A model generated the notes under the pieces. It did not search any database. It worked only from the letters and a program-made list of their open reading frames with translations, and was not told the origin of the DNA. The translations under genes and the position numbers were made by a program. From contig CAVYWK010000022.1 of NCBI GenBank assembly GCA_963772255.1, positions 149,797-213,796 on the forward strand: a DNA stretch of 64,000 nucleotides. The letters are read 5' to 3'. Positions 2,737 through 32,632 of the stretch are shown one piece after another. How positions within the stretch are numbered: position 1 is the first letter of the stretch; the number at the start of each line of letters is the position of its first letter. The stretch comes from an uncultured Acidobacteriota bacterium (lineage in GTDB: Bacteria; Acidobacteriota; UBA4820; DSQY01).

Positions 2737-4504
2737 ATGCCAAAGGATCCTTTCGACGAATCCCAGCTTGGAGATGTCGACATCGGCCGCCGGAAGTTTC
2801 TGCAAGAAGGGCGGCGCCGCGCTGGCCGCGGGAGTCACGCTGGCCTCCCTCCCAGCAGTTGCGGTCTCGGGCGGAGACCTCCCGTCGGATGCGGGACAGG
2901 AACCGGAGTCGGCGGAGGCCGCGGACCGGCCGTGGCGGCGCCCGAACCTCCTCTTCCTCATCACGGACCAGGAGCGCTATCCGCAGCACTGGCCGGAACA
3001 CTGGGCCGATGTGAATCTGCCCAACCGCAGGCGGCTCGCCGATCACGGACTGACCTTCACGCGCAACTTCTGCAACGCCGCCATGTGCTCGCCCAGCCGG
3101 GCCACGCTCTTCACGGGCCTCTACGCTTCGCAGCACCGCGTGACCCAGGTCCTGCAGTACGGCGGCCCCGATGACTGCGACGGGGACAACACCGGGCAGA
3201 CGACGCTCCAGCCCGGGCTCCAGACCATCGGCCGAATGCTCCTGGACGCGGGCTACGACGTGCAGTACCGCGGCAAGTGGCACATCAACAAGGACCCCAC
3301 CGGCACCATGCCCATCCAGAGCCCGGCGGACCTGGAACGGCACGGCTTCCCCGGCTGGATCCCGCCGGAGGCCGGAACCGATCAGAGCCCGACCGTGTTC
3401 GGCGGAGGGGACACCAACTACGACGCCCAGTACGCCTCCCAGGCGGCGGACTTTCTGAAGAGCGTCAACCCGGGGTCCTCCAAGCCCTTCGCGCTCTTCG
3501 TCTGTTTGGCCAACCCGCACGACCTCATGGGCTACCCGAGCACCTGGGACCAGCAGAGCTACAGCGACATCCCCCCGTTCGAGGGATCCCACAACTACCT
3601 CAAGGACGTGCCCCGCTGCTTCGAGCAGAACATCGATCTCCCGCCCACCGCCGGCGAGCCCCCCTTCGGGAACTTCAAGCCCCCGGCGCAGGGCGAATCC
3701 ACGATCATGTGGGCCTCCGGGCTGGGGACCCTCCTGAGAGAACAGGAGAAGCTGAACTACGTGAACTTCTACGCCTACCTGCACAAGCTGTCGGACGAAC
3801 ACTTCGGCACCGTTCTGGACGCGCTGGAGTCCAGGCATGCGTTGAGGAAACAGACCCTCGTCTTCGCCCTCTCCGATCACGGGGAGATGGGGCTGGCCCA
3901 CGGCGGCATGCGCGAGAAGGCCTACAACGCCTACGAGGAGACCATCCACGTGCCCCTCGTGGTCTCCAACCCCAAGCTCTTCCCCGGCCCCGTGCGGACC
4001 CAGGCTCTGGCGTCGCTCATCGATCTGATGCCCACCGTGGCCAACCTCGCGGGCGTGCAGAATCATGGGCGGTACACGTTCATGGGGCAAGACCTGACCC
4101 CCATCATCCAGGACGCCGTGGACCATCCGGCCAATCCCACCAAGACCGTGCAGGATTCCATCTACTTCACCACGGACGAGGTCCTCGGCGCGGAGATCGT
4201 GAGGTCGCCCAGCCACATCCGCTGCCTGCGCGAGGCGGGCTGGAAGGTCGCCGAGTATTTCGACCTGACGGCCGGAAATCCATCCCAGTTCGAGCTGTAC
4301 GACCTGGTCAACGACCCCCTCGAATCGCACAACATGGGCGACCCCGCCAACACCGCCTACTTCAACCCCGCCAAGCTGGCCGAGATGGTGGAGAAACTGC
4401 ATCGCAAGATGGAGGAGATCGATAACCACCCGTTCAGCGCGGTTGCGAAGCAGCGTGCGCCCCAGGCCAGGAAGCGGGGTTCCGTGCCGACCGGTACGGA
4501 ATGA
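2737..4504 (+). CDS. Cys-type sulfatase (arylsulfatase family) with Tat signal peptide. Frame break near 2800-2812 between the RR motif and the hydrophobic region.
   Basis: The sulfatase signature C-S-P-S-R (MCSPSRATLFTGLY) is present. The Tat motif GRRKFLQ is in the frame starting at ATG 2737 (GGGGGG SD), while the hydrophobic region GGAALAAGVTLASLPAVA and the rest of the protein are in the 2687 frame. Confidence 0.8.
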
Positions 4505-4538
4505 CCGCGGCGGCCAAGCGCCATAGGGTGGCCACGCC

Positions 4539-5792
4539 ATGATGGACACGCCAGGCAGTCCACCCGCCGGCTGCACGCGAGTCCCGACGCCTCCCCCCGC
4601 ATTCCACGTGATGGCCAAGCCGCGCGGGGCGGTGTGCAACTTGGACTGCGCCTATTGCTTCTACCTCCCCAAGGAGAAGCTTTACCCTGGCAGTGGTTTC
4701 CGGATGTCTGACGCGCTGCTGGAGGAGTACGTCCGCCAGCACATCGAGTCGCACCAAACGCCCGAAGTCACCTTCACCTGGCAGGGTGGCGAGCCCACGC
4801 TCATGGGGCTCGACTTCTTCCGGCGGGCTCTGGAGCTGCAACGGAAATACCGCAAGCCGGAAACGCAGATCCACAACGCGCTCCAGACGAACGCCACCAC
4901 GCTGGACGACGAATGGTGCCGGTTCTTCAGGGAAAATGGTTTCCTCGTCGGCGTCAGCCTCGACGGCCCGCGCCCGGTCCACGACGCCTACCGCGTGGAC
5001 CGGGGCGGCGCGCCGACCTTCGACAGGGTGATGGCCGGCCTCGCTCTCCTGCAGGTGCACGGGGTGGAGTTCAACGTCCTCGCCTGCGTCCATGCCGCGA
5101 GCGCCGGCCGCGGCCTGCAGGTCTACCGCTTCCTGCGCGACGACGTCGGGGCACCGATGATCCAGTTCATCCCCATCGTAGAGCGCGACAACACCACCGG
5201 ATTCCAAGAAGGCGACACGGTGGCGGCCCGCTCGGTCACCGGCAAGCAATACGGTGAGTTCCTGATCGCGGTCTTCGACGAGTGGGTGCGCCGCGATGTG
5301 GGCCGCGTGTTCGTACAGATCTTCGATGTGGCGCTGGGCGTCTGGTTCGGCCAGCCCTCCACGCTGTGCGTTCACGCCGAAACCTGCGGGGACGCACTGG
5401 CGCTGGAGCACAACGGCGATCTGTTCTCCTGCGACCACTTCGTGGAGCCCCGCCACAGGCTGGGGAACATCACGGAAACGCCCCTCGCCGACCTGGTCGC
5501 CTCGCCGCAGCAGCGCAAATTCGGGCTGGACAAGCGAAACTCGTTGCCACGGACCTGCCGTCAGTGTGAAGTTCGCTTCGTGTGCAACGGGGGCTGCCCG
5601 AAGGACCGCATCCTCACCGCCCCCGACGGCGAGCCGGGGCTCAACATTTTGTGCGAGGGGCTCAAGGCGTTCTTCACCCACATCGACCGCCCCATGAGCA
5701 TCATGGCGGACCTCCTCCGCCAGCGGCGCTCGCCGGCAGCCGTCATGCACCTCGCCGGTATGCCCGACCATTCGCGTCCGCCCGCGCCCTGA
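4539..5792 (+). CDS. Anaerobic sulfatase-maturating enzyme (radical SAM/SPASM, AslB/ChuR family)
   Basis: KPRGAVCNLDCAYCFY CxxxCxxC radical-SAM motif plus C-terminal Cys-rich SPASM region (CRQCEVRFVCNGGCP). Alternative start at ATG 4611. Confidence 0.85.
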   Translation: MMDTPGSPPAGCTRVPTPPPAFHVMAKPRGAVCNLDCAYCFYLPKEKLYPGSGFRMSDALLEEYVRQHIESHQTPEVTFTWQGGEPTLMGLDFFRRALELQRKYRKPETQIHNALQTNATTLDDEWCRFFRENGFLVGVSLDGPRPVHDAYRVDRGGAPTFDRVMAGLALLQVHGVEFNVLACVHAASAGRGLQVYRFLRDDVGAPMIQFIPIVERDNTTGFQEGDTVAARSVTGKQYGEFLIAVFDEWVRRDVGRVFVQIFDVALGVWFGQPSTLCVHAETCGDALALEHNGDLFSCDHFVEPRHRLGNITETPLADLVASPQQRKFGLDKRNSLPRTCRQCEVRFVCNGGCPKDRILTAPDGEPGLNILCEGLKAFFTHIDRPMSIMADLLRQRRSPAAVMHLAGMPDHSRPPAP

Positions 5793-5856: not shown

Positions 5857-7504
5857 ATGAGTGAAGTCCTGCCCGGCATTCTCGCGCGGTCCCGACGGGG
5901 GCTCTGCCCGACCTGTGGCGCCGCGCTCCAACTCAAGGACTCCGAACGCCTCGTGACGTGCGGCTTCTGCGGAGCCCGGTCGAGCCTCGAGCGTCGCCTG
6001 CGGAAGCAGGACGCCGATGTGGACCTTCCCGAACTGGGCCCGGGCGAAGGCGGGGAACAGGACACGCGATGGCTCGCGGCCGCCATGGGCGAGAGTCGCC
6101 CCGAGAAGGTCACCTGCCCCGGTTGCGGCGATAAACTCGAGGGCGATCTCGCCCACGAGATCCTCACCTGCGCATCCTGCGGCACGCAGTGCAAGGTGGA
6201 GCGGCGCATGGTGCGCCCCCGGGCCGAGGCGCCCGTGGCGCCGGAGCGCCGCACCCGCGCGGACTTCGAGCTCCAGCGACGGGGTGGATCGACGCTCAAA
6301 TGGGATGTGGAGACCGAGCAGCTCATCTGGCGGATCCTCAACGAGCCCGACCTGGCGCGCCAGGTCGCCTACGCCCTCAAGTTCGAGGACTGGGCGTATC
6401 ATCAACGCCACGACGGTCTACTTCCTGCCGTTCCTGCTGGCCCTCGCGAAGCGGAGCGACCTGCGCCTGAGTGGCCCCCTCTGCGAGTGCGTCGGCAAGC
6501 TGCTGTGCCAGGAGGACGCCCGGCTCTTTGCGCCTACGCTCGAGGCCTGCGAGCCCTTCGCCCGGGACCCGCAGGGCTGCACCGAGCTCCTTCACCAGAT
6601 CGGGCTCGGCAACGCGCGGGGCATGAAGCTCCTGCTCGACGCGGCCGACGCGGCGGCCCGGGCGGGCGCCATGGACTATGCGGCCAACGCGCTCTGGGCG
6701 GCGCACTACATCGTGGAGCGGAACTACGACGAGCACCCGGTCATCTCCGAGATCATGCTCTACCGGCTCTTCTATCTCTCTCCCACGGTGATGGGATGGG
6801 TGTTGTACGTCATTCAGAGCGGCGAGGGCGGATACGTCTTCAGCGATCCCTATGCCCTGCTCGAGTTCATGGACGACTGCGCCTTCGAGCGGCCGGAACT
6901 GGTGAGCTTCCTGGCCACGCGCCCCTACGCGCCCGACGTCACCACCCTCACGGAATTGGCGGAACGCCTGGCGTTCATCGACGCGCGGCTCAGCAAACCG
7001 GCCAAGGCTGCCGCCCTGACGGCGCTGGCGAATATCGCCGACCAGGCGCCCGCCGACGTGCTCGCCTCGGCCGTGGCGTTCATGGATCCCTGGCTCGACG
7101 ACCCCGAATTATGCCCGGCGGCCACGACCCAGCTGCGGCGCTACATTAAGGCGGGAGACGACATTGCGCCGCCGCTGGTGGAGCTCATTCACCGACGAGG
7201 CCACTCCCTGCCCGAGATCGTGCAGCGTGAGGTGCACTGGAAGGCGCCTGAAAACACCCTCCTGGACCGCGGGAGGATTCCGCCCTACTACGACGGCGAG
7301 CCCGCGGCCACGATGGAGCCCGAGGTCGCGCAGGCGCTCGAGGCTTACGACACCGCCATCCGGCAGGCCGTGGACAGACGGGACGAGGAGAGGGAGGCGG
7401 CCAGGGCTTTCTGGCAAGAAGCGCGCGACCTGGAGGTCGATCTGTTCGGCGAAAACGGCCAAGAAGCCAGGGCTTCGACGGGAGCGGGGCATGAACCCCT
7501 CTAA
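5857..7504 (+). CDS. Hypothetical protein with two N-terminal zinc-ribbon modules and a roughly 400 aa uncharacterised C-terminal domain. Frame break near 6395-6415.
   Basis: CPTCG...CGFCG and CPGCG...CASCG motifs. The N-terminal part is in frame 5857 and continues in frame 6017 (IINATTVYFLPFLLALAKRS...). Confidence 0.5.
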
Positions 7505-9085: not shown

Positions 9086-10999
9086 TCACGCCGGTTCTGG
9101 CCTCGGAGTGGGCAGGGGACCTATCTTTTCCACGCGTTCCGTCATCGCCACGGGTTCGGGTGTGGGGCCCGTAGGCGGATCCAGGGGTTTCTGGGGCAGG
9201 TCCTCCCCGCGCAACAGCGCCTCGAATTCCTCTTTGTCGAGAACCTCCCGATCAAGCAGGGCCTGGATGACCCGGCCCATCTGCTCCTTGTGCTCGGTGA
9301 TGATCTCCCGGGCCTGCTTCTGGGCCGTCAGAACGATGCTTTTGACCTCCTGGTCGATCTCGCGGGCGGTCTCCTCGCTGTACTGGCCGCGGGCGCCGCT
9401 TTCCCAGAAGGCCGCGAAGGGGTTGCTCTCGGCGCGGTAGCTCAGGGGGCCCATTTTTTCGCTCATGCCCCAGGCCACCACCATGTTCCTGGCCATCTCC
9501 GTGGCTTTCTCGAAGTCGTTGCCCGCACCCGTGGTGACGGAGCCGATGAGGGCTTCCTCGGCCGTCCGCCCGCCCAGCATGACGGCGATTTCCGCTTCGA
9601 GGTACTCCTTGGAGTAGTTGTACTTGTCGTCCATGGGGAGCTGCTGGGTCAGGCCCAGCGCCATGCCCCTGGGAACGATGGTGATCTTATGGATGGGGTC
9701 CGCGTTGGGGATGAAGCTTGCCACCACCGCGTGGCCCGCCTCGTGTGTGGCCACGACCTTCTTGTCCTGCTCGGAGAGGATGAGGGAGCGCCGCTCGCTG
9801 CCCATCATGACCTTGTCCTTGGCGAACTCGAAATCCTCCATGGCCACGCCCTTGCGCCCCAGGCGCGCCGCGCGCAGGGCCGCCTCGTTGGCCAGGTTGG
9901 CCAGGTCCGCACCCGAGAACCCCGGCGTGCCGCGGGCCACCACGCCCAGGTCCACGCCCTCCAGGAGCTTGAGGGTGCGCACATGGACGCCCAGGATCTC
10001 CGTCCGGCCCTTCAGGTCGGGGCGGGGCACGACGATGCGTCGGTCGAAACGGCCCGGCCGCAACAGGGCCTGGTCGAGGACATCGGGGCGGTTGGTGGCG
10101 GCGATGAGGATGACCCCCTCGTTGGCCTCGAACCCGTCCATCTCCACCAGGAGCTGGTTGAGGGTCTGCTCGCGCTCCTCGTGGCCGCCCATGTTCCCCA
10201 CGCCGCGGTTGCGGCCCACGGCGTCGATCTCGTCGATGAAGACGATGCACGGCGCGTTCTTCTTGGCCTGTTCGAACATGTCGCGCACGCGGCTCGCGCC
10301 CACGCCCACGAAGAGCTCCACGAACTCGGAGCCGGAGATGGAGAAGAAGGGCACGCCCGCTTCGCCGGCGATGGCCTTGGCCAGGAGGGTCTTGCCCGTA
10401 CCCGGCGCGCCCATGAGCAAAACGCCCTTGGGAATCTTCCCGCCCAGCTTTTGGAACTTCTGGGGGTCCTTGAGGAAGTCGATGATCTCGTAGAGCTCCT
10501 CCTTGACCTCCTCGATGCCCGCCACGTCTTTGAACGTGATCTTGTTCTTGCTCTCGTTCACGAGCTTGGCCTTGGACTTCCCGAAGGAGAAGGCTTTGTT
10601 CCCGCCCTGCTGCATCTGGCGCATGAAGAAGAACCAGAAGGCGATGAGGGCCACCACGGGAGCGATGTAGAAAAAGGCGAAGATGTACTGGGACGAGCTG
10701 GACTCGGAGGAGCGTACGTCGATCCCCTTGCCCACCAGTTTGGGCGTGTAGTTCTGCAGGTCGGGCGGCAGGCTCGTGCTGTAGTTGGTGGCCCCTTCGA
10801 TGGGATCCTTCAACTCGCCTTTGACGGTGGTGCCCTTGATCACGGCGGTCTTGACCTGGCCCTGTTCCACGAGCTGGTCGAACTTGCTGAAGGGGAGCTC
10901 GGTCTCCTTAAGGCTGGCCTTGCGAAGAAGTCCTATGGAGACGGCGACGACCACGAAAATGAGCGCCCAAAGCAAGAGGTTGCGGAGTTGCTGGTTCAC
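9086..10999 (-). CDS. ftsH: ATP-dependent zinc metalloprotease FtsH
   Basis: N-terminal TM segment, AAA+ Walker A GAPGTGKT, zinc-protease HEAGHA motif, 637 aa. Confidence 0.95.
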
Positions 11000-11129
11000 A
11001 AGAATCTCCTAAGAATGCGAGTGACACAGAGCCGGGGGCACGGAAAACGGGGTTTCCCGCGCCTCGCCGTCTCGTGGCAAGAATCCACCTTCCCGGCGGA
11101 CATGTGGAGAAACGCCCGCCGCCCCTCCC

Positions 11130-11645
11130 TCATTCCGATTCGACCCAGGTGATGTAGGGGAGGTTCCGGTAGCGCTCCTGCCAATCCAGCCCGTAGCCTA
11201 CCACGAACTTGTCGGGGACGGTGAAGCCCCGGTAGTGAACCGGCACATCGAGCTTGCGCGCCTCGGGTTTGTCGAGGAAGGCGGCCACGCGAATGGAGGC
11301 GGGGGTCCGTTCCACCTCCAGGTGCTTGATGAGGTAGTCCAGGGTGATGCCCGTGTCCACGATGTCCTCCACGATGAGCACGTGCTGGCCCGAGAGATCC
11401 ATGGTCGATGTGAAAAGGATGTTCGCGTGGACCCCGTCCACCTGGCTCTTCATCTCGAGCAGGGCCAGCCGGACGTCTCCGGTGAGGCGCCGCATGAGAT
11501 CCGCCAGAAACGGGATGGACCCCTTGAGAATGGCCAAGAGGATTATCGTTTGGCCCCGATAGTCCGCGTTGATCTGCTGGGCGAGTTCTTCCACCCGCTG
11601 CCTGATCTGCTTTTCCGTGAACAGGATGCCCGTGGCGAGCTTCAT
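11130..11645 (-). CDS. hpt: Hypoxanthine-guanine phosphoribosyltransferase
   Basis: PRTase motif VLIVEDIVDTGITL and typical Hpt length. The conserved tilS-hpt-ftsH order is present. Confidence 0.85.
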   Translation of the reverse strand: MKLATGILFTEKQIRQRVEELAQQINADYRGQTIILLAILKGSIPFLADLMRRLTGDVRLALLEMKSQVDGVHANILFTSTMDLSGQHVLIVEDIVDTGITLDYLIKHLEVERTPASIRVAAFLDKPEARKLDVPVHYRGFTVPDKFVVGYGLDWQERYRNLPYITWVESE

Positions 11646-12671
11646 GAGGTTCTCCCTTCTTCCGGCGTCGCGGCCCTCAGCCTAATTCCCGCCCTCTCGC
11701 GGGCGCCGACCCATCCGCCGGGCAGGGCCACCAGCCCTCCCGGGCGAGCCTCGCGCAGTGCCCAGAGGGCCCGCAGGTGGCGTTCGGTGATCCGGCGCAG
11801 GTCGCCCCGAACCCCTCTCAGCCCTTGCCGGAGAGCCTCCAGGCCCCGCCCTTCTCCCAGTGCGGACAGCGCAGCGCACTCATAATATACGGTCCCGTTC
11901 TCCGTGCTGGCAATGGAGACACCCTCCCGGGAGGGTGTCTGGCCCGCCAGCCGCGCCAGCGCCGCAAGGCGGCGGGAAAATCCGGGAAGGGCGCCATCGA
12001 GGGCGGGCAGGATCTCGCGCCGGATCCGGTTTCTTAGAAATCGCCCGTCGGCGTTGGTGGAGTCCTCTAAATAGGACAGCCCGCAGAGCTCGGCCGCCTG
12101 CCGCAGTTGAGGGCCGGTGAACGAGAGAACGGGGCGGATCACCCGTTCGGCCCGAGCGCGAATCCCCGCCAATCCCTGGAGCCCGGTCCCCCGGGCGATG
12201 CGCATGAGGACCGTCTCCGCCTGGTCGTCCAGCGAGTGGGCCGTGACGACCCAGTCCCAGCCTCCCTTCTCGCGCAACCGTTCCATGGCGGCATAGCGGC
12301 CTAGCCTCGCCCATTCCTCGACGCTCTGTCCCTTCGCGGGCTTGCCCCGAAGCCTGGCCCTGTGCGAAGGGCAGGTCGAGCGACCTGGCCAGCATTTTCA
12401 CCGCCGCCTCGTCCCGGTCCGCCTCCTCACCCCTCAGGTTATGGTGGACATGGATCACGCCCAGCACGAGGTCCGGACGGGGTCGGGCGGAAAGCAACAG
12501 GGCGAGGAGCCCCACGGAGTCGCCTCCACCCGAGACGGCCACGAGAACCCGGCAACCGTCCCGCAGGGGCAGATCCTTCAGGCCGGCCCGGAACATCTTG
12601 AGAAGGGGGTGGTGGCGGTGCAGGGAGTCGAACCCCGGACACAACGGATATGAGCCGTTTGCTCTAACCAC
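11642..12671 (-). CDS. tilS: tRNA(Ile)-lysidine synthetase TilS, split by a frame break near 12290-12330
   Basis: The N-terminal frame carries the PP-loop SGGGDS. The downstream frame carries HSLDDQAETVLMRIARG and the C-terminal domain. Its stop overlaps the hpt start (ATGA). Confidence 0.8.
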
Positions 12672-14992: not shown

Positions 14993-16864
14993 ATGCGAAG
15001 AAGCTTAATCGGAGCCGCTCTGGGGCTTTGCATCGGGGCGGCGGCCCTTTCGGTCCCCGTCCTGGCACAGTGGACAGGGGAGATCGGGGGCGGCTATGTC
15101 TGGCAGACCTATGCGGGCAACCAGAACGCCTTCATCAGCCAGTACGGGCTTCGCCCGGGCTGGGTGCTGGACAACTTCGAGCTGGCTTACGCTCCCAAGG
15201 CGGGGGCGGCACAGACTTTCGGAGTCCAGGCAAGCGGGTTCGGCGGAGCAGAGCCCGATCAGCATGGGTCGATCTTTTTTAACGCCAGCGGTGGTTGGCG
15301 GTTCGCCCTCAACTACGACCGCCAGCTCTCCTTCTTCTCTGTACCCGGTGGAAGCTTCACCTACCAGAACGACCAGTGGGCGATCGAGCGCTGGAAGGGG
15401 TCGGTCATCTGGGACGGGTGGTCCGCCGCCAAGCTCACCCTGAACCTCCGCTACACCGCGCGGAGCGGGTACTCCTACCGGCCCTTCTTCGGCATGGCGC
15501 AGCAGTACGCCATGAAGGACAATTACGACCAGACCATGAAGGAAGCGGCCTTCCGCATCGAAACGAAGACGCTCCCGGTCTACCTGTCCTTCGAACAGTC
15601 TTACGCCCGCTACGAGCGCGAAGACCGCTGGTCGCCGGCAAGTCCGTATCCACTGTACGGGTCCCCCCCAAACTGGCTCGTGGGCCTGGACACGCCGAGG
15701 CAGGACAAGACCAACGTTCCGACCAGCCGCCTCATCGCGAGCTACCGGAACGACAGGGTGGACGTGTCGGGCTCCTTCCTCTACGCCAAAGCCGACATGA
15801 CCAGCAGCGGCACGCGGACGGCGGCCTTTGACTTGCAACAGGGTGCCGTGGGACAGGCCCAGTACATCGACAGCCTCATCGGCTCCGCGTCCCAGGACAC
15901 GCGCGCCGCCAACGTGGACGTGGCGGTGAAACTGGGTGCGGGGTGGTCCCTCTCCCTCGCTGGCGATTACCGCGACGCGACGCAGGACGCCAACCTCTTC
16001 GGGGCCAACACGATCAAGTTCGGCCAGCCCGGCGGCGCCTGGAACGTCATCTCCCAGCAGATCACGGACCAGGGGTTCTTCGATGTGAAGGACACCTCGG
16101 GTCGCCTGGAGATCACGAAAAAGGGTAACGGCTGGTCCGCCTGGGGCGGCTATCAGGCCCTCTCCCGGGATGTCTCTTACGGTAACCTCGCCGTCGATCC
16201 GAGCGTCAAGCGCACGGGCGACGGGTGGTTCGTGGGCGGCTCCTGGTCCAGGACCCCGGTTCTGCAGGTGGACGCGGAGTACCAGCACGGGACCTTCGAA
16301 CAGTTCGTCTTCCGGACCGATCCCGACTTGGCCCAGCGCTTCACGTTCCGCCTCAATTCCCGTCTGGGCGGCGGCTGGCAGATCGGCGCGCGGGCCCGGT
16401 GGGAGCAAGCCACAAACCCGGCGGACATCTCCAACCTCCGGCGCCAGACCCAGGGTGCCGGCGTGACCGCAGCCTGGGCCAACAAGCCCGGCACTGCGGG
16501 CTTCGGATTCACGGCGGACACCCTTTCGGTCAAGGCGCGGACCAACACGTTCTTGCCCGCCGGTGACGGTAGGGTGCCCTGGGTCTCGGTATACGACATC
16601 GATGTTCTGGCCATCGGCGCCAACGGCCACCTCCAAGTGGGCAAGGTCTACCTGGATGCCGACCTCGCGTACCTGCGCAATTCCAGCGACAACCAGCCCG
16701 TCACGGGCTGGACCGGGGGCGTCAAGGCCTCGGTGGATGTCTTCAAGAACGGCCAGGTCATCCTCTTCGGCCAGTACCGATCCTACGTCGAGGGTTGGGA
16801 TGTTCTATCGCTGAACAATTACTACGTGAGACGGTACGGCGTGAGTCTCCGGTGGAGGTTCTAA
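14993..16864 (+). CDS. Outer-membrane beta-barrel protein, MtrB/PioB-like decaheme-associated porin family (putative)
   Basis: Signal peptide MRRSLIGAALGLCIGAAALSVPVLA. About 600 aa, rich in alternating aromatic/Gly beta-strand patterns, with a C-terminal aromatic residue (..LRWRF). Its stop overlaps the start of the decaheme cytochrome gene (TAATG). Confidence 0.65.
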   Translation: MRRSLIGAALGLCIGAAALSVPVLAQWTGEIGGGYVWQTYAGNQNAFISQYGLRPGWVLDNFELAYAPKAGAAQTFGVQASGFGGAEPDQHGSIFFNASGGWRFALNYDRQLSFFSVPGGSFTYQNDQWAIERWKGSVIWDGWSAAKLTLNLRYTARSGYSYRPFFGMAQQYAMKDNYDQTMKEAAFRIETKTLPVYLSFEQSYARYEREDRWSPASPYPLYGSPPNWLVGLDTPRQDKTNVPTSRLIASYRNDRVDVSGSFLYAKADMTSSGTRTAAFDLQQGAVGQAQYIDSLIGSASQDTRAANVDVAVKLGAGWSLSLAGDYRDATQDANLFGANTIKFGQPGGAWNVISQQITDQGFFDVKDTSGRLEITKKGNGWSAWGGYQALSRDVSYGNLAVDPSVKRTGDGWFVGGSWSRTPVLQVDAEYQHGTFEQFVFRTDPDLAQRFTFRLNSRLGGGWQIGARARWEQATNPADISNLRRQTQGAGVTAAWANKPGTAGFGFTADTLSVKARTNTFLPAGDGRVPWVSVYDIDVLAIGANGHLQVGKVYLDADLAYLRNSSDNQPVTGWTGGVKASVDVFKNGQVILFGQYRSYVEGWDVLSLNNYYVRRYGVSLRWRF

Positions 16865-17771
16865 TGGTGCGCGGACGCTTTTGCATCGCAGCGGTTACCC
16901 TCGGGCTTGCGCTGGGAGGGCTTTCCCTGGGCCTGCTCGGCGCGGATCCCGTTCCGGCCCCGGTGACGGCGTGACGGCCCCGGAGACAGCAAAAACCCCG
17001 GGGCTCGTGGGTGGAGAGACCTGCGCCACGTGCCACGAGGACATGGCGAAGGCCTTCCTGGCGGGCCCCCACGGGCAGGCCATGGCGGCCCGGTCCAAGA
17101 CCATGCCGGACGAGGCTTGCGAGCGCTGCCACGGACCGGGTGGAACCCACGTGGATGATCCTCAGAAGACCAACATCGTCAGGAACCCCAAAGACGAGGC
17201 CTGCCTGAGTTGCCATTCCCAGGCCGGGGGCCTGATGGCCCTGAGTCTCCCAGGGCACGACCGCACGGGCGTCCCCAAGTGCCTGGACTGCCATGTTCCG
17301 GGTCACGGGCCTGCGCCCGCCAAGCCCCTGCTGGCCGGCCCGCCCTCGGTGGTCTGCGCCAAGTGCCACGGTCAGGTGGCGGTGTCCTTCAAGATGCCCT
17401 ACAGCCATCGCAAGGGCGACAGCCCCTTCGAGTGCACCGCCTGCCACGCGGCCCACGGCAACAACCGCACGGGGCGCCTGCAGCAGACGGGCCCCGGCGC
17501 AGTCTGCCTCACGTGCCACACGGAAATGTCGGGACCCTACATCTACCCGCACCCGCCGCGCTCCGTGAGCGGCTGCATCGAGTGCCACACCCCGCACGGT
17601 TCCATGAACCCCATGATGCTCACCCGCCCGCAGGTGGCGGAAGTGTGCATCGAATGCCACACGGCGCTGACCCCACGGCACAACATCAGCAAGCCGATAT
17701 ACCGCAACTGCCAGAACTGCCACATCGGAATCCACGGCTCGAATCACAGCCGTCAACTGCTCGACGAATAA
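16864..17771 (+). CDS. Decaheme c-type cytochrome, MtrA/PioA/MtoA-like periplasmic component. Frame break near 16955-16975 between the signal peptide and the mature part.
   Basis: Ten CXXCH motifs (CATCH, CERCH, CLSCH, CLDCH, CAKCH, CTACH, CLTCH, CIECH, CIECH, CQNCH) in about 300 aa. The signal peptide MVRGRFCIAAVTLGLALGGLSLGLLGA is in the frame beginning at ATG 16864. Confidence 0.8.
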
Positions 17772-17797
17772 GTTCTTGGCTTGAGGATCAGACCCCC

Positions 17798-17822
17798 AAG
17801 GGGACCCGACGAGGGTCCCCTT
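17798..17822 (+). terminator. Stable hairpin (AAGGGGACCC-gacga-GGGTCCCCTT) after the decaheme gene; possible attenuator or partial terminator
   Basis: Perfect 10 bp inverted repeat read from the sequence. It lacks a clear T tract, so termination efficiency is uncertain. Confidence 0.35.
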
Positions 17823-18147
17823 GAGCTTATTCGGGGCAATGCTCTCACTGCTTTCACCTCTCTGATCCCGCATGAATGAGCATAATTTATACAAAGTCCC
17901 CCAATTGAGCCCGTTTGATGGCAATTTTGAGACCCATTTACCGGCCGATTCCAAAGTGGCAAATGGGGCATATACCCCACCACGACAAGGCATTTCTCTT
18001 TTTTTACCCATTTCTCTTGCAATCTGTTTTAAATTGACCCTCGGAGGTTGGCGGTTTAGGAAGAGGCGCAAGAATTCTCCTGGCTCTCGGGGATTTCTTG
18101 GAGGCGTTTTGAGGGCCGGTCAATTGTCAGATAGGAGGAGTTTCAGC

Positions 18148-20000
18148 ATGAAGAAGGCTATTTTCGCGGGATTAACACTGGCAGTGGCCGGCACCATGGT
18201 TTGGGCCGCTTCAAACAAAGCCCCGGTGATGGGCGGCGGCAGCGTCGTCGTGCCCGTGGCCAAAGAGCAGAGCTTGCAGAAGCTGCTCAACAGCCGCTAC
18301 TCCAAGGCTGAGCTTGCGGCTGGGACCTACGTGGGTTCCGAGTTCTGCCTTTCGTGCCATACCGGTTCCATCGCGCCCAACCAGACCTCTTGGCGCGACA
18401 CCTACCACGCTCACGCGCTCCGCCAGCCCATGGGCATGTACAGCCTGCAGCCGGGCCTGGGCGTTTTGGCGGATTACGATCATAACGGAGTGGACGACTT
18501 CAAGCAGGGCCTGGACTTCAACGCCGATCAGCTCCAACTTCGACTGCCACCAAGCCCAACGCCCCCATCCTCTCCTACAACGCCGCCGACGACACCTACT
18601 GGATCCAGCTCGGACCCGACGGGCCTCAAGGTTCAGGTCGTGGCCACCTGGGCCGGCCAGAGCGCGACCAACGGCCAGCGCTTCATGGTCCGCGTTCCCG
18701 TGAGCGACACGCCCTCCGGCTGGAGCGCGGCCATCTACTTCGCCCCCTTCGCCTGGGGTGGAACGGCCTACTCGCGACAACTCCAAGTACTGGTACACGG
18801 GCAGCACGCCCAAGTACGCCCCGGGCGTGACCACGGCCCAGCTCGGCACTCGACCACCGGGCTCCAGGGCCAGAACTACCTGCCAGAACTGCTCGGGCTG
18901 CCACATCACCGGCGTCCGCAAGGCCTTCGTGACGACGCAGCGGCGAGTACGTCGTGAACCCCTACCCGGCGTCCCTCGTCCCCGAGAACAGCCCCAACTA
19001 CCCCGACCTGGACGGCGACGGCCTCCCGGACATGGCCAACATCGGCTGCGAGAGCTGCCACGGCCCCGGCTCCGCCCACATCCTTGCCGGCGGCGACCCC
19101 TCCAAGATCGTGAACCCCGCCGACCTGCCCGCGAGCACCGGCTACGCCCAGGCCAACCAGGCCCGGTCCGGCGTGTGCCTCCAGTGCCACGTCCAGACCG
19201 GCTCCTGCGCCCACCAAGAAGTGGGGCTTCACCTTCGACGAGACCACGAATACGCCCTTCCGGGTGGCCAACCCCCTGCCGGACCTCACCCAGTACCAGG
19301 TCTCCAAGGCCGTGAAGTGGCCCGACGGCGTCGCCTACAGCACGGAGCGCATCGACAGCTACCGCAGCAGCGCCCACTACGAGGGCAGCCACGGCATCGC
19401 CTGCAACGACTGCCACGACGCCCACGCCATCACCGAGAACGGGACCAACCAGGTTCGCGACACCATCACCCGCAGCGGCGTCACCGTACACCAACACCAG
19501 CGTCGAGGACGACAGCTTCTGCCTCGCGTGCCACGCACGCGCCCGCGCGTTCCCGACCATCACGCAAGCAGAACGTGATCGACTGGAAGACCGCCGGCTT
19601 CGAGGCCCCCATTCCGGACAGCATCCGCGACGGCATCGAGGCCCACACCCACCACCCCTACGGCGCGAACCGCTCCCTCGGCCTGAGCCGCTGCACAGGC
19701 TGCCACATGGCCTCCAACCACACCTTCTGGGTGGCGGAGCCCGAGAGCACCATCGCCTACAAGGATGTGGTCACCTCCGACACCGTCAAGGGCAACATCA
19801 ACGGGTGCTCCGCCGGCTGCCACCGCGGCCAGGTCATCATCTGGAGCGACGTGCCCGCCAACCTGACCTACACGGACAAGCTCTACAACGGCGCCAACGA
19901 GATCAGCCTCGCCAACCACCTGGTGCAGTACTTCGGCCCCGGCGGCGAGTGGTTTGACACCACGCCCGCCTCGGCGCCCGTGGCCCAGGACTGGAAGTAG
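18148..20000 (+). CDS. Multiheme c-type cytochrome (eight or more haem sites, about 617 aa), secreted. The reading frame is disrupted at least eight times.
   Basis: ATG at 18148 with AGGAGG 7 nt upstream. Signal peptide MKKAIFAGLTLAVAGTMVWAAS without a lipobox Cys. Haem motifs CLSCH, CSGCH, CESCH, CLQCH, CNDCH, CLACH, CTGCH plus CSAGCH (CX3CH) are spread over four frames, with protein-like sequence continuing across frame switches. Terminator follows. Confidence 0.65.
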
Positions 20001-20026: not shown

Positions 20027-20056
20027 GAGGGGGGCTTCGGCCCCCCTCTTTTTTTA
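20027..20056 (+). terminator. Rho-independent terminator (GAGGGGGGC-ttcg-GCCCCCCTC followed by TTTTTTT)
   Basis: Perfect GC-rich stem and a 7-T tract immediately after the cytochrome stop at 20000. Confidence 0.7.
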
Positions 20057-20113
20057 TTGGATTTCATGGGGTTAGGGTAGGATTGGTTCGGGAGCCGGGG
20101 TGTTCCCGGATTG

Positions 20114-30887: not shown

Positions 30888-31384
30888 CCATTCGTAAGCC
30901 GCTGTCCCCTATCGAGATCCAGTCCAATGAGTTCCGACGCGTGTTCCGGGGCTTCGACCCCGAAGAGGTGCGGCTCTTCCTCCAGGCCGTGGCCGAATCC
31001 CATCAGGCGCTGATCCTTGAAAAGACCCAGCTCGCCCAGAGTTCGGAACACCTCCAGGCGGCCCTGGACGAGTTCCGCCGCCGGGAAAATGTCCTCAAGG
31101 ATGCCCTTTACACGGCTCAGCGTACGGCGGACGAGGTCAAGACTCAGGCCATGCGCGAGGCCCAGAGCATCGTACAGGAGGCCCAGGTTCGCGGCGAAGC
31201 CTATGTCCAGCAGGCCCAGCTTCGGGCCCACCAGATGGAGCGAGGGATATTGGACCTCAAACTCGAACGGGAAAACGCCCTCAGCTCCCTGCGAGAGCTC
31301 CTGCGCCGGACCCAGAACCTTCTGGAGGTTTTGGAGCATCCCATGGGCGGCGAGGTGGCCACCCTCTACAAGGACAACGCTTGA
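30884..31384 (+). CDS. DivIVA-domain protein
   Basis: N-terminal DivIVA motif LSPIEIQSNEFRRVFRGFDPEEVRLFL. Overlaps the yggS stop (ATGA). Confidence 0.75.
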   Translation: MTIRKPLSPIEIQSNEFRRVFRGFDPEEVRLFLQAVAESHQALILEKTQLAQSSEHLQAALDEFRRRENVLKDALYTAQRTADEVKTQAMREAQSIVQEAQVRGEAYVQQAQLRAHQMERGILDLKLERENALSSLRELLRRTQNLLEVLEHPMGGEVATLYKDNA

Positions 31385-32632
31385 GCCACACCTTCGACCT
31401 CCTGGTTGGCCCCATCGGCTGCCTGGTCCCCTGCCATGCGCCGGCCCCCAGGCTGGGGTCGGATCTGCGTGATCTGCCGACAATCTCCGGCGGGGCCGTG
31501 GGCATCCAGGGCGGACGGATCACCTTCGTGGGCACCTACGCGGAGGTTTACGGTGCCTCGACCCTTCAGCGTCTGGATGCCTCGGACTGCACGGTCCTCC
31601 CCGGGCTGGTAGACCCCCACACCCATGTGCCCTTCCTGGGAGACCGCGCCAAGGAACTGGTCCAGCGCCTGGGGGGGAAGACCTACATGGAGATCGGCCG
31701 GGAGGGCGGGGGGATCGTGAGCACCATGAGATCGGTCCGGCAAGCCGCTCCGGAGGAATTGCTGGCCTCGGCTCGCAACCTGGCTTCCCGGTTCCTTGCC
31801 CATGGCGTCACGACCTTCGAAGCCAAGAGCGGATATGGATTGGACATCCCTAACGAAATCAAGCAGTTGAACGTGCTGAGGACCCTGGCCGAGGAGGGAC
31901 CTCAGACCATCGTCCCCACCTGCCTGGGCGCCCACTTCGTCCCCCCGGAATTCAAGGCCGACCCCGGAGGCCTATGTGGACCTGCTCTGCGACCAGCTCC
32001 TCCCGGAGGTGGCCCGGAGGGGTCTCGCCCGGTTCTGCGATGTCTTTTGTGAGGAGGGGGCGTTTACCCTCGATCAGTCCAGGCGTATCCTTATCACAGG
32101 GAAAGGGTTAGGTCTCATGCCGCGACTTCATGCGGACGAGATCGAAGATACGGGCGGCGCCGCGCTTGCCGCGGAAGTGGGCGCCGTGAGCGCGGATCAC
32201 CTCATGGCAGTTTCCGACTCGGGCATCGAAGCCATGTCGAGGGCCGGCGTCTGCGCCACGCTCTTGCCGGGAACCTCGTTTTACCTTCGAAAGGCCTACG
32301 CGCCGGCCCGAAAGTTCGTGGAGGCGGGGTGTCCCGTGGCGCTCTCTACGGACTGCAACCCGGGATCCTCCTACACCACCAACCTCCTCCAAATCGCCAC
32401 CCTCGGCGTCTTCGCCCTGGGGCTCATGCCGGAGGAAGCTCTCTGGGCCGTCACGCTCAATGCGGCCTACGCGCTTCGCGAACACGACCGGGTCGGATCC
32501 CTCGCCCCCGGGAAGCGCGCGGACCTCAGCATCTGGAGCGTCCCCTCCTACCTGCACCTGTTTTATCCCTACGCCGAGAACCCGCTGAGAGCCGTCGTCT
32601 GTGGCGGGCGCGCCTCGGACTTCACGGCCTGA
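31381..32632 (+). CDS. Imidazolonepropionase-like amidohydrolase (HutI family), with a frame break near 31960-31985
   Basis: DPHTHVPF, SGYGL, GAHFVPPE in the 31381 frame. LHADEI...STDCNPGSS...SLAPGKRADL continues in the 31976 frame. No other hut genes are adjacent. Confidence 0.65.

Follow-up and report, generated by a model that had tools for sequence, protein, structure and literature searches.

Ten frame shifts in an acidobacterial octahaem cytochrome gene, very probably a consensus artefact of collapsed variants in an otherwise ordinary gene

Results

An octahaem cytochrome gene in a three-gene module

The window, by which we mean the whole 64-kb stretch of DNA that was analysed, carries a gene for an octahaem c-type cytochrome as the last member of a three-gene module. 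Direct reading of the sequence places the limits of this gene at an ATG at 18148 and a TAG at 19998-20000. The module and its signals comprise the following features (window coordinates).

14993..16864, + strand: outer-membrane-protein-like gene, 623 aa, uninterrupted, first of the three-gene module; C-terminal end ...RWRF
16864..17771, + strand: DmsE/MtrA-like periplasmic decahaem cytochrome gene, 299 aa after correction, frame-shifted by an exact 8-bp tandem duplication
16963..16978, + strand: tandem repeat, GTGACGGC twice, in a Pro-rich linker just after the decahaem signal peptide
18133..18139, + strand: Shine-Dalgarno-like AGGAGGA, 8 nt 5' of the ATG, by direct sequence reading
18148..20000, + strand: octahaem c-type cytochrome gene, about 614 aa, split over three frames in the deposited sequence
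18148..18207, + strand: predicted Sec signal peptide MKKAIFAGLTLAVAGTMVWA, from the sequence, cleavage site inferred
18346..18360, + strand: haem site 1, CLSCH, frame 1
18890..18904, + strand: haem site 2, CSGCH, frame 2
19047..19061, + strand: haem site 3, CESCH, frame 0
19176..19190, + strand: haem site 4, CLQCH, frame 0
19402..19416, + strand: haem site 5, CNDCH, frame 1
19446..19640, + strand: hypervariable segment, dS 0.54 and dN 0.17 against close orthologs
19520..19534, + strand: haem site 6, CLACH, frame 2
19692..19706, + strand: haem site 7, CTGCH, frame 0
19806..19823, + strand: haem site 8, CSAGCH (CX3CH), frame 0, invariant in 115 homologs
20027..20058, + strand: intrinsic terminator, a 9-bp GC-rich stem followed by a T run, just 3' of the stop codon

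Three-frame translation gives a total of seven CXXCH sites and one CX3CH site in the octahaem protein, distributed over three forward frames; the original prediction had rightly seen the motifs scattered over several frames, but had counted four of them, where only three exist. Eight haem motifs and an N-terminal signal peptide together mark the product as a c-type multihaem cytochrome. The signal peptide holds no Cys, and therefore the protein is not a lipoprotein. The expression signals are undamaged, with the ribosome-binding site AGGAGGA on the 5' side and a strong terminator on the 3' side. A Pro/Thr-rich stretch that had been suspected of being an out-of-frame artefact is indeed one, and the correct frame gives TKPNAPILSYNAADDTYWIQLGP, which holds invariant residues of the family.

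The first gene of the module is always adjacent, at 17 loci at least. Its 623-aa product gave no match in Pfam, NCBIfam or the PDB, and showed no similarity to MtrB or to any PDB chain. The second gene encodes a decahaem cytochrome with ten CXXCH motifs, which matches positions 1-257 of the 258 positions of TIGR03508 (E 1e-49) with 169 bits, below the curated cut-off of 192. Its 8-bp duplication splits the signal peptide from the mature protein, and the length of the Pro-rich linker in which it lies varies among orthologs. The order of outer-membrane protein, MtrA/DmsE-like decahaem cytochrome and octahaem cytochrome is kept in at least 19 acidobacterial loci. From the sequences, we regard the module as a candidate conduit of the porin-cytochrome type, of which the octahaem cytochrome is the predicted outer member.

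Intact relatives and the octahaem family

A hand-stitched translation of the octahaem gene matched 382 homologs. The best of these, P0001, is uninterrupted, 614 aa long and 90% identical to the hand-stitched translation. Its 90% cluster also holds P0121 and P0123, both uninterrupted and 614 aa long, and P0124, a 141-aa fragment (MIDWKTAGFEAPIPDS...AQDWK) identical to the last reading-frame piece of the window gene. After frame correction, the product is 90-96% identical to the three intact orthologs P0001, P0121 and P0123.

At the DNA level, we compared the gene with five independent orthologs, L001 (Logan) and L028, L029, L031 and L033 (JGI), which are 92-95% identical in nucleotide sequence to the window and mutually gap-free. 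The orthologs are 1845 nt long and the window gene 1853 nt. A scan of genome contigs yielded only relatives at 72% identity or below. In a set of 29 related loci, all copies whose contig names are of short-read style (NODE_, k141_, Logan, JGI) are single-frame. The only other multi-frame copy in the set, L027 (MFD02923.bin.1.102 contig_5990), bears a long-read-style name and has several frame-shifted genes.

The family comes, among the matches, almost entirely from Acidobacteriota MAGs (Thermoanaerobaculia, Holophagae and unclassified). All eight haem motifs are invariant or nearly so in 115 homologs down to 37% identity, and since this includes the CX3CH site (C551..C555-H556 in the numbering of P0001), that site is a genuine trait of the family and not an error; the original prediction had correctly placed it near the C terminus. 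Membership of the window gene in this family is shown by its eight motifs, which agree in kind and order, and by its conserved non-haem residues. A single frame of about 1845 nt, which also characterises the family, is lacking in the window sequence and is restored by ten frame corrections; we interpret this departure as sequence error. The underlying family is biologically sensible and is not new in kind.

Ten single-nucleotide indels within about 1 kb

Alignment to the intact orthologs placed all of the frame-disrupting events in one stretch.

18524..19564, + strand: putative error zone, with all ten window-private 1-nt indels

Relative to the five orthologs there are nine +1 insertions (18524, 18545, 18615, 18775, 18882, 18938, 19204, 19486 and 19564) and a single -1 deletion (18848), and the same ten 1-nt gaps are private to the window against each of the five. 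A scan of metagenome contigs for an exact pattern across two of the indel sites gave no match, a negative of no weight, since L028 fits the pattern and lies outside that collection. Two further indels suggested by the first pairwise alignments, at 19535 and 19546, proved to be alignment artefacts: frame 2 reads CLACHARARAFPTIT there, at the length of the orthologs, and MAFFT aligned this region without gaps. All eight switch positions of the original prediction lie about 16 nt or less from a real indel, although the -1/+1 pair at 18848 and 18882 had been missed.

The clustering amounts to about 100-fold in one 1-kb stretch, and the Poisson probability of at least ten such events in the octahaem gene is about 5e-13 to 2e-16. 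Over 15 kb syntenic with L001, 17 other genes have at most one frame-disrupting gap each. A codon-usage scan combined with Pfam and NCBIfam checks of the whole window found only four other frame breaks.

about 6394: break in an unnamed gene
12361: break in tilS
16963-16978: break in the decahaem gene
about 31966: break in hutI

The excess of breaks in the octahaem gene that had been noted earlier is thus real, but the accompanying rate of one break per gene elsewhere is not, the actual figure being about four per approximately 60 kb.

The zone holds 45 runs of at least 3 nt and 13 runs of at least 4 nt, and none of the ten indels falls inside any of the latter 13. Moreover, the added base differs from its neighbours in at least five of the nine insertions. 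Both findings speak against the earlier suggestion that a homopolymer-rich sequence caused the frame shifts.

The insertions read as pairs of synonymous alleles

Each of the nine insertions is compatible with a tandem arrangement of two alleles that are synonymous at a single codon position; for example, TCG and TCC give TCGC. Eight of them are third-position pairs (GCC/GCG, GGA/GGC, TCG/TCC, CTG/CTC, ACG/ACC, TCC/TCT, ACC/ACG and ACG/ACC). The ninth, at 18545, allows a GAC/GAT reading or, alternatively, a first-position Ala/Ser pair that is present among the relatives. An insertion made at random fits the synonymous-allele pattern with a probability of 0.365, so that nine fits out of nine correspond to p of about 1e-4 (8e-5 by simulation), and to p of 3.5e-6 when conditioned on the inserted bases observed.

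At two sites, the doubled bases (C+G at 18524 and T+G at 18545) are both of the alleles that split the five orthologs, with G in L001 and L028 and C or T in L029, L031 and L033. At the other seven insertion sites, none of the five orthologs shows the proposed second allele. The same signature occurs outside the octahaem gene. The essential gene tilS reads GCA C[A]GG GCC where its ortholog reads GCA CGG GCC, which corresponds to the Arg pair CGG/AGG. By eye and without a nucleotide reference, the breaks in hutI (GAC CC[C][G] GAG) and in the gene at about 6394 (GCG[T] ATC) show it as well.

These placements bear on an alternative in which residual long-read noise, random in its placement within a stretch of low coverage or bridged by a single read, caused the shifts without any collapse of haplotypes, an artefact that would likewise leave the gene intact in vivo. 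Such noise would account for shifts that are all of 1 nt and restricted to about 1 kb between undisturbed flanks, for the sporadic 1-nt shifts elsewhere in the window, including that in the essential tilS, and for the similar damage in L027 with its long-read-style name. However, it would reach synonymous-compatible positions in 36.5% of cases, against nine of nine observed (p about 1e-4 to 4e-6), and two of the sites reproduce natural allele pairs. Noise should bring substitutions with it as well, yet dS in the zone (0.14-0.16) is not above that of the neighbouring genes. We therefore consider random noise improbable.

Selection on the corrected gene

For a test of decay, the octahaem gene of the window was projected onto the ortholog frame. 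The corrected gene contains zero in-frame stops and has a dN/dS of 0.21 over its whole length and of 0.14 in codons 125-430, which hold most of the shifts; in the neighbouring genes, dN/dS is 0.02-0.22 and dS 0.14-0.48. At the protein level, none of the 99 invariant columns and none of the 77 columns that are at least 90% conserved among 49 homologs is lost after correction, and the same is true of the intact orthologs. Apart from the indels, the coding sequence is under purifying selection. Its dN/dS of 0.21 compares with 0.10-0.11 in the module partners, a difference that fits the faster evolution reported for extracellular cytochromes (PMC12977616). Raised "mutation rates" in Geobacter cytochromes, drawn from the same paper, were considered as a cause of the frame shifts and set aside, as the paper concerns dN/dS and not indels. 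A count of private substitutions hinted at an excess of non-synonymous change; this count is unpolarised, and the divergent segment keeps the ancestral DTITRSG of distant homologs, so it was not used as evidence of decay.

Indel mutations in bacteria, as seen in mutation-accumulation studies, are deletion-biased and varied in size, and mostly lie in runs or duplicate a neighbouring base. The spectrum in the octahaem gene, with nine +1 events, one -1 event and all ten of 1 nt, is unlike that expectation.

A decaying pseudogene was one of the options of the original prediction, and it can be put most strongly as a real and very recent pseudogene, the module having been inactivated by the 8-bp duplication in the decahaem gene together with the ten 1-nt indels in the octahaem gene. 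Two of the three module genes are disrupted, which would fit a real inactivation of the module, and extracellular multihaem cytochromes are reported to be quick to turn over and be lost (PMC12977616). The duplication itself could stem from a collapsed consensus and equally from a real slippage mutation; being an exact tandem copy, it is plausible as slippage in vivo, and it looks more like a real slipped-strand mutation. The octahaem gene, in contrast, gives no signal of decay: it has no stops, its dN/dS stays at 0.14-0.21, every conserved residue is kept, and its 1-nt indels run 9:1 in favour of insertions. Ten indels without extra substitutions are implausible under the bacterial spectra described above, no mutational reason exists for a preference for synonymous sites, and the essential tilS carries a lesion of the same kind. 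A real pseudogene is therefore very improbable.

Discussion

Origin of the frame shifts

Taking these lines of evidence together, we consider it very probable, from sequence comparison, that the ten frame shifts are a consensus artefact of collapsed strain or paralog polymorphism, and that the octahaem gene is an ordinary and probably functional one. That the cluster is an artefact of some kind, and not a real biological feature, is close to certain, and the organism itself probably has an intact gene. The collapsed consensus had been among the causes offered by the original prediction, and in this general form, covering strains or paralogs, it is borne out by the nine of nine insertions readable as tandem synonymous alleles and by the two that match alleles of relatives. 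The placement at synonymous sites points to a collapsed consensus because variants differ there, whereas mutation and random read noise have no such preference.

We propose that two very similar versions of the octahaem gene, belonging either to co-occurring strains or to a near-identical paralog, may have contributed reads that were collapsed into one consensus sequence. The two versions would differ mostly at synonymous third-codon positions, where the consensus would have kept both alleles in tandem and so produced a +1 shift; once, at the -1 deletion, it would have kept neither. Consensus procedures of the PBdagcon type split mismatches into insertion-deletion pairs and, given two alleles with roughly equal support, could retain them both. 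The assembly route is accordingly suspected to have been a long-read or graph-based consensus that turned mismatches into such pairs, and the octahaem gene may have been hit hardest as the locally most polymorphic one. A literature search for PBdagcon-type consensus turning SNPs into indels found only that Canu and HiCanu use an algorithm of this type (PMC7545148).

Two of the orthologs illustrate variation of this sort. L031 and L033, on short-read contigs of one JGI metagenome, both end inside the octahaem gene, at positions equivalent to 19501 and 19477 of the window, and these break points lie at the start of the hypervariable segment 19446-19640. As both break inside the gene, co-occurring variants therefore exist in nature and disturb assembly there.

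In a special case of the collapsed consensus, the second version would be a diverged paralog elsewhere in the genome, and not a strain variant. Related genomes do hold two or three paralogs, some of them in tandem; one MAG is the source of both L004 and L020, and L003, L008 and L017 have two copies each. However, no paralog lies within the 64-kb window. Known paralogs are 35-72% identical, which is too distant for collapse, and in distance from the orthologs the zone does not exceed its flanks. A chimera with a diverged paralog is extremely improbable.

The collapsed consensus resembles the indel errors of long-read or strain-mixed MAGs in that single-base indels split conserved genes, essential ones included, that they are absent from short-read-style orthologs, and that L027 is damaged in a like manner. 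Such indel and frame-shift errors are addressed by proovframe (10.1101/2021.08.23.457338), and those in Nanopore MAGs are discussed in PMC9262707. In contrast to the usual errors of this class, the indels of the octahaem gene are not linked to homopolymers, are insertions in a ratio of 9:1, sit at positions of synonymous SNPs and are clustered about 100-fold. These differences point to collapsed polymorphism rather than to base-calling error.

Taken at face value, the locus would be scored as a pseudogenised gene of extracellular electron transfer, and the potential for iron or humic respiration would be under-called. Were the indels and the 8-bp duplication truly in the DNA, a very recent, local and insertion-biased burst of mutation would have knocked out the whole electron-export module while sparing the remaining coding sequence, or the gene would be decoded despite its shifts; we give this only the slimmest of chances. 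The tandem placement of two synonymous alleles at third-codon positions, seen as +1 insertions, is a diagnostic that requires no reads. It could flag consensus errors from collapsed variants in MAGs and gives a hint of the sites of polymorphism in a population.

Comparison with known cytochrome systems

The original prediction had proposed a comparison with the OmcA/MtrC and OmcB families, and the octahaem cytochrome fits neither. It has eight haems and no lipobox, and models of the MtrC/OmcA type stay below threshold, PF22113 with 23 bits against a cut-off of 30 and TIGR03507 with no match for P0001; by its sequence, it is not a member of MtrC/OmcA or of OmcB. A profile of the family matched 6qvm ("Multiheme cytochrome cf"), which we take to be OmhA of Carboxydothermus ferrireducens, locally, in segments near haem sites 2-3 and 5-8 (E 2e-8). 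The same profile matched the pentahaem nitrite reductase NrfA (1fs7 and 3bng) with E 1e-5 over profile positions 289-470, which correspond to haem sites 3-6. Both matches are partial, and nothing else ties the octahaem cytochrome to a solved structure. An identity with NrfA was rejected, since the match is partial and the three-frame translation contains no CXXCK, the active-site motif of that enzyme. AlphaFold models reached a pLDDT of 91 with an alignment of 115 sequences, and an unusable 37 with one of 16 sequences. Foldseek with the model of pLDDT 91 gave no match of E<1 in the PDB, and therefore no structural family can be assigned to the octahaem cytochrome.

In gene content, the module resembles MtrCAB of Shewanella and OmbB-OmaB-OmcB of Geobacter, as an outer-membrane-protein-like gene, a DmsE/MtrA-like decahaem cytochrome and a secreted multihaem cytochrome adjoin one another. 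The Pcc clusters of Geobacter have the order porin, periplasmic cytochrome and outer cytochrome, which matches the order of the acidobacterial module. Unlike those conduits, the acidobacterial module has a predicted outer cytochrome with 8 haems instead of 10 or 12 and with no lipobox. Comparable clusters for extracellular electron transfer in Acidobacteriota have been described in MAGs from peat and are transcribed in peat (bioRxiv 10.64898/2026.05.27.727921). An octahaem gene with an invariant CX3CH site, set in a module of outer-membrane protein, decahaem and octahaem cytochromes in Acidobacteriota, is of a known kind.

The conserved module and a second damaged record

The octahaem cytochrome gene belongs to a three-gene module, whose genes lie side by side in the same order in no fewer than 19 loci of Acidobacteriota, with identities of 35-97% (window 14993-20000 and the related loci L001-L028).

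14993-20000, module: a 623-aa outer-membrane-protein-like gene, an MtrA/DmsE-like decahaem cytochrome gene and the octahaem cytochrome gene
16963-16978, within the decahaem gene: exact 8-bp tandem duplication, two copies of GTGACGGC
19446-19640, within the octahaem gene: hypervariable segment (dS 0.54, dN 0.17)

No family match was found for the 623-aa gene. In several genomes, the octahaem gene has two or three paralogous copies, and some of these stand in tandem. The related MAG contig L027 (CAVRTJ010000037.1, MFD02923.bin.1.102 contig_5990) has several frame-shifted genes (for example, at 3196-4953 and 10704-12399 of that contig), its outer-membrane-protein and octahaem genes among them. 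It is a second public record with the same kind of frame-shift damage as the window.

Frame breaks in other genes of the window

Three genes outside the module are also interrupted.

5857-7504, + strand: unnamed gene containing a zinc ribbon; frame switch of the coding signal at about 6394
11645-12671, - strand: tilS (tRNA lysidine synthetase); split by a 1-nt insertion at 12361
31381-32632, + strand: hutI (imidazolonepropionase); two ORFs, break at about 31963-31967

The tilS gene is essential as a rule. Its TIGR02432 profile is shared by two ORFs (1-74 and 92-189), and the insertion yields C[A]GG, a synonymous Arg pair CGG/AGG. The TIGR01224 profile of hutI is likewise divided (4-160 and 166-375); the junction, GAC CC[C][G] GAG, is compatible with a CCC/CCG allele pair and also with run expansion. 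In the zinc-ribbon gene, the coding signal changes frame midway through two long overlapping ORFs, and the junction GCG[T]ATC, judged by eye, would fit a doubling of alleles of the same kind.

The decahaem gene is frame-shifted by the GTGACGGC duplication directly past the signal peptide, in a Pro-rich linker of variable length between orthologs. The duplication may be real or an artefact.

The hypervariable segment of the octahaem

The window segment carries DTITRSG, which is also kept by distant homologs; among the close orthologs, those spanning the segment (L001, L028 and L029) have DVVVRSGK in common. The ortholog loci L031 and L033, short-read contigs from a single JGI metagenome, both stop within it. 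This distribution of motifs, together with the contig ends, suggests recombination or strain mosaicism.

Structure model of the octahaem

The AlphaFold model of the intact ortholog P0001 (mb32fd7c04c3d) is confident (pLDDT 91, pTM 0.86), and a Foldseek search of this model against the PDB returned nothing with E below 1, although sequence profiles of the octahaem do pick up NrfA and 6qvm. Fold search appears to be blind to haem-scaffolded folds.
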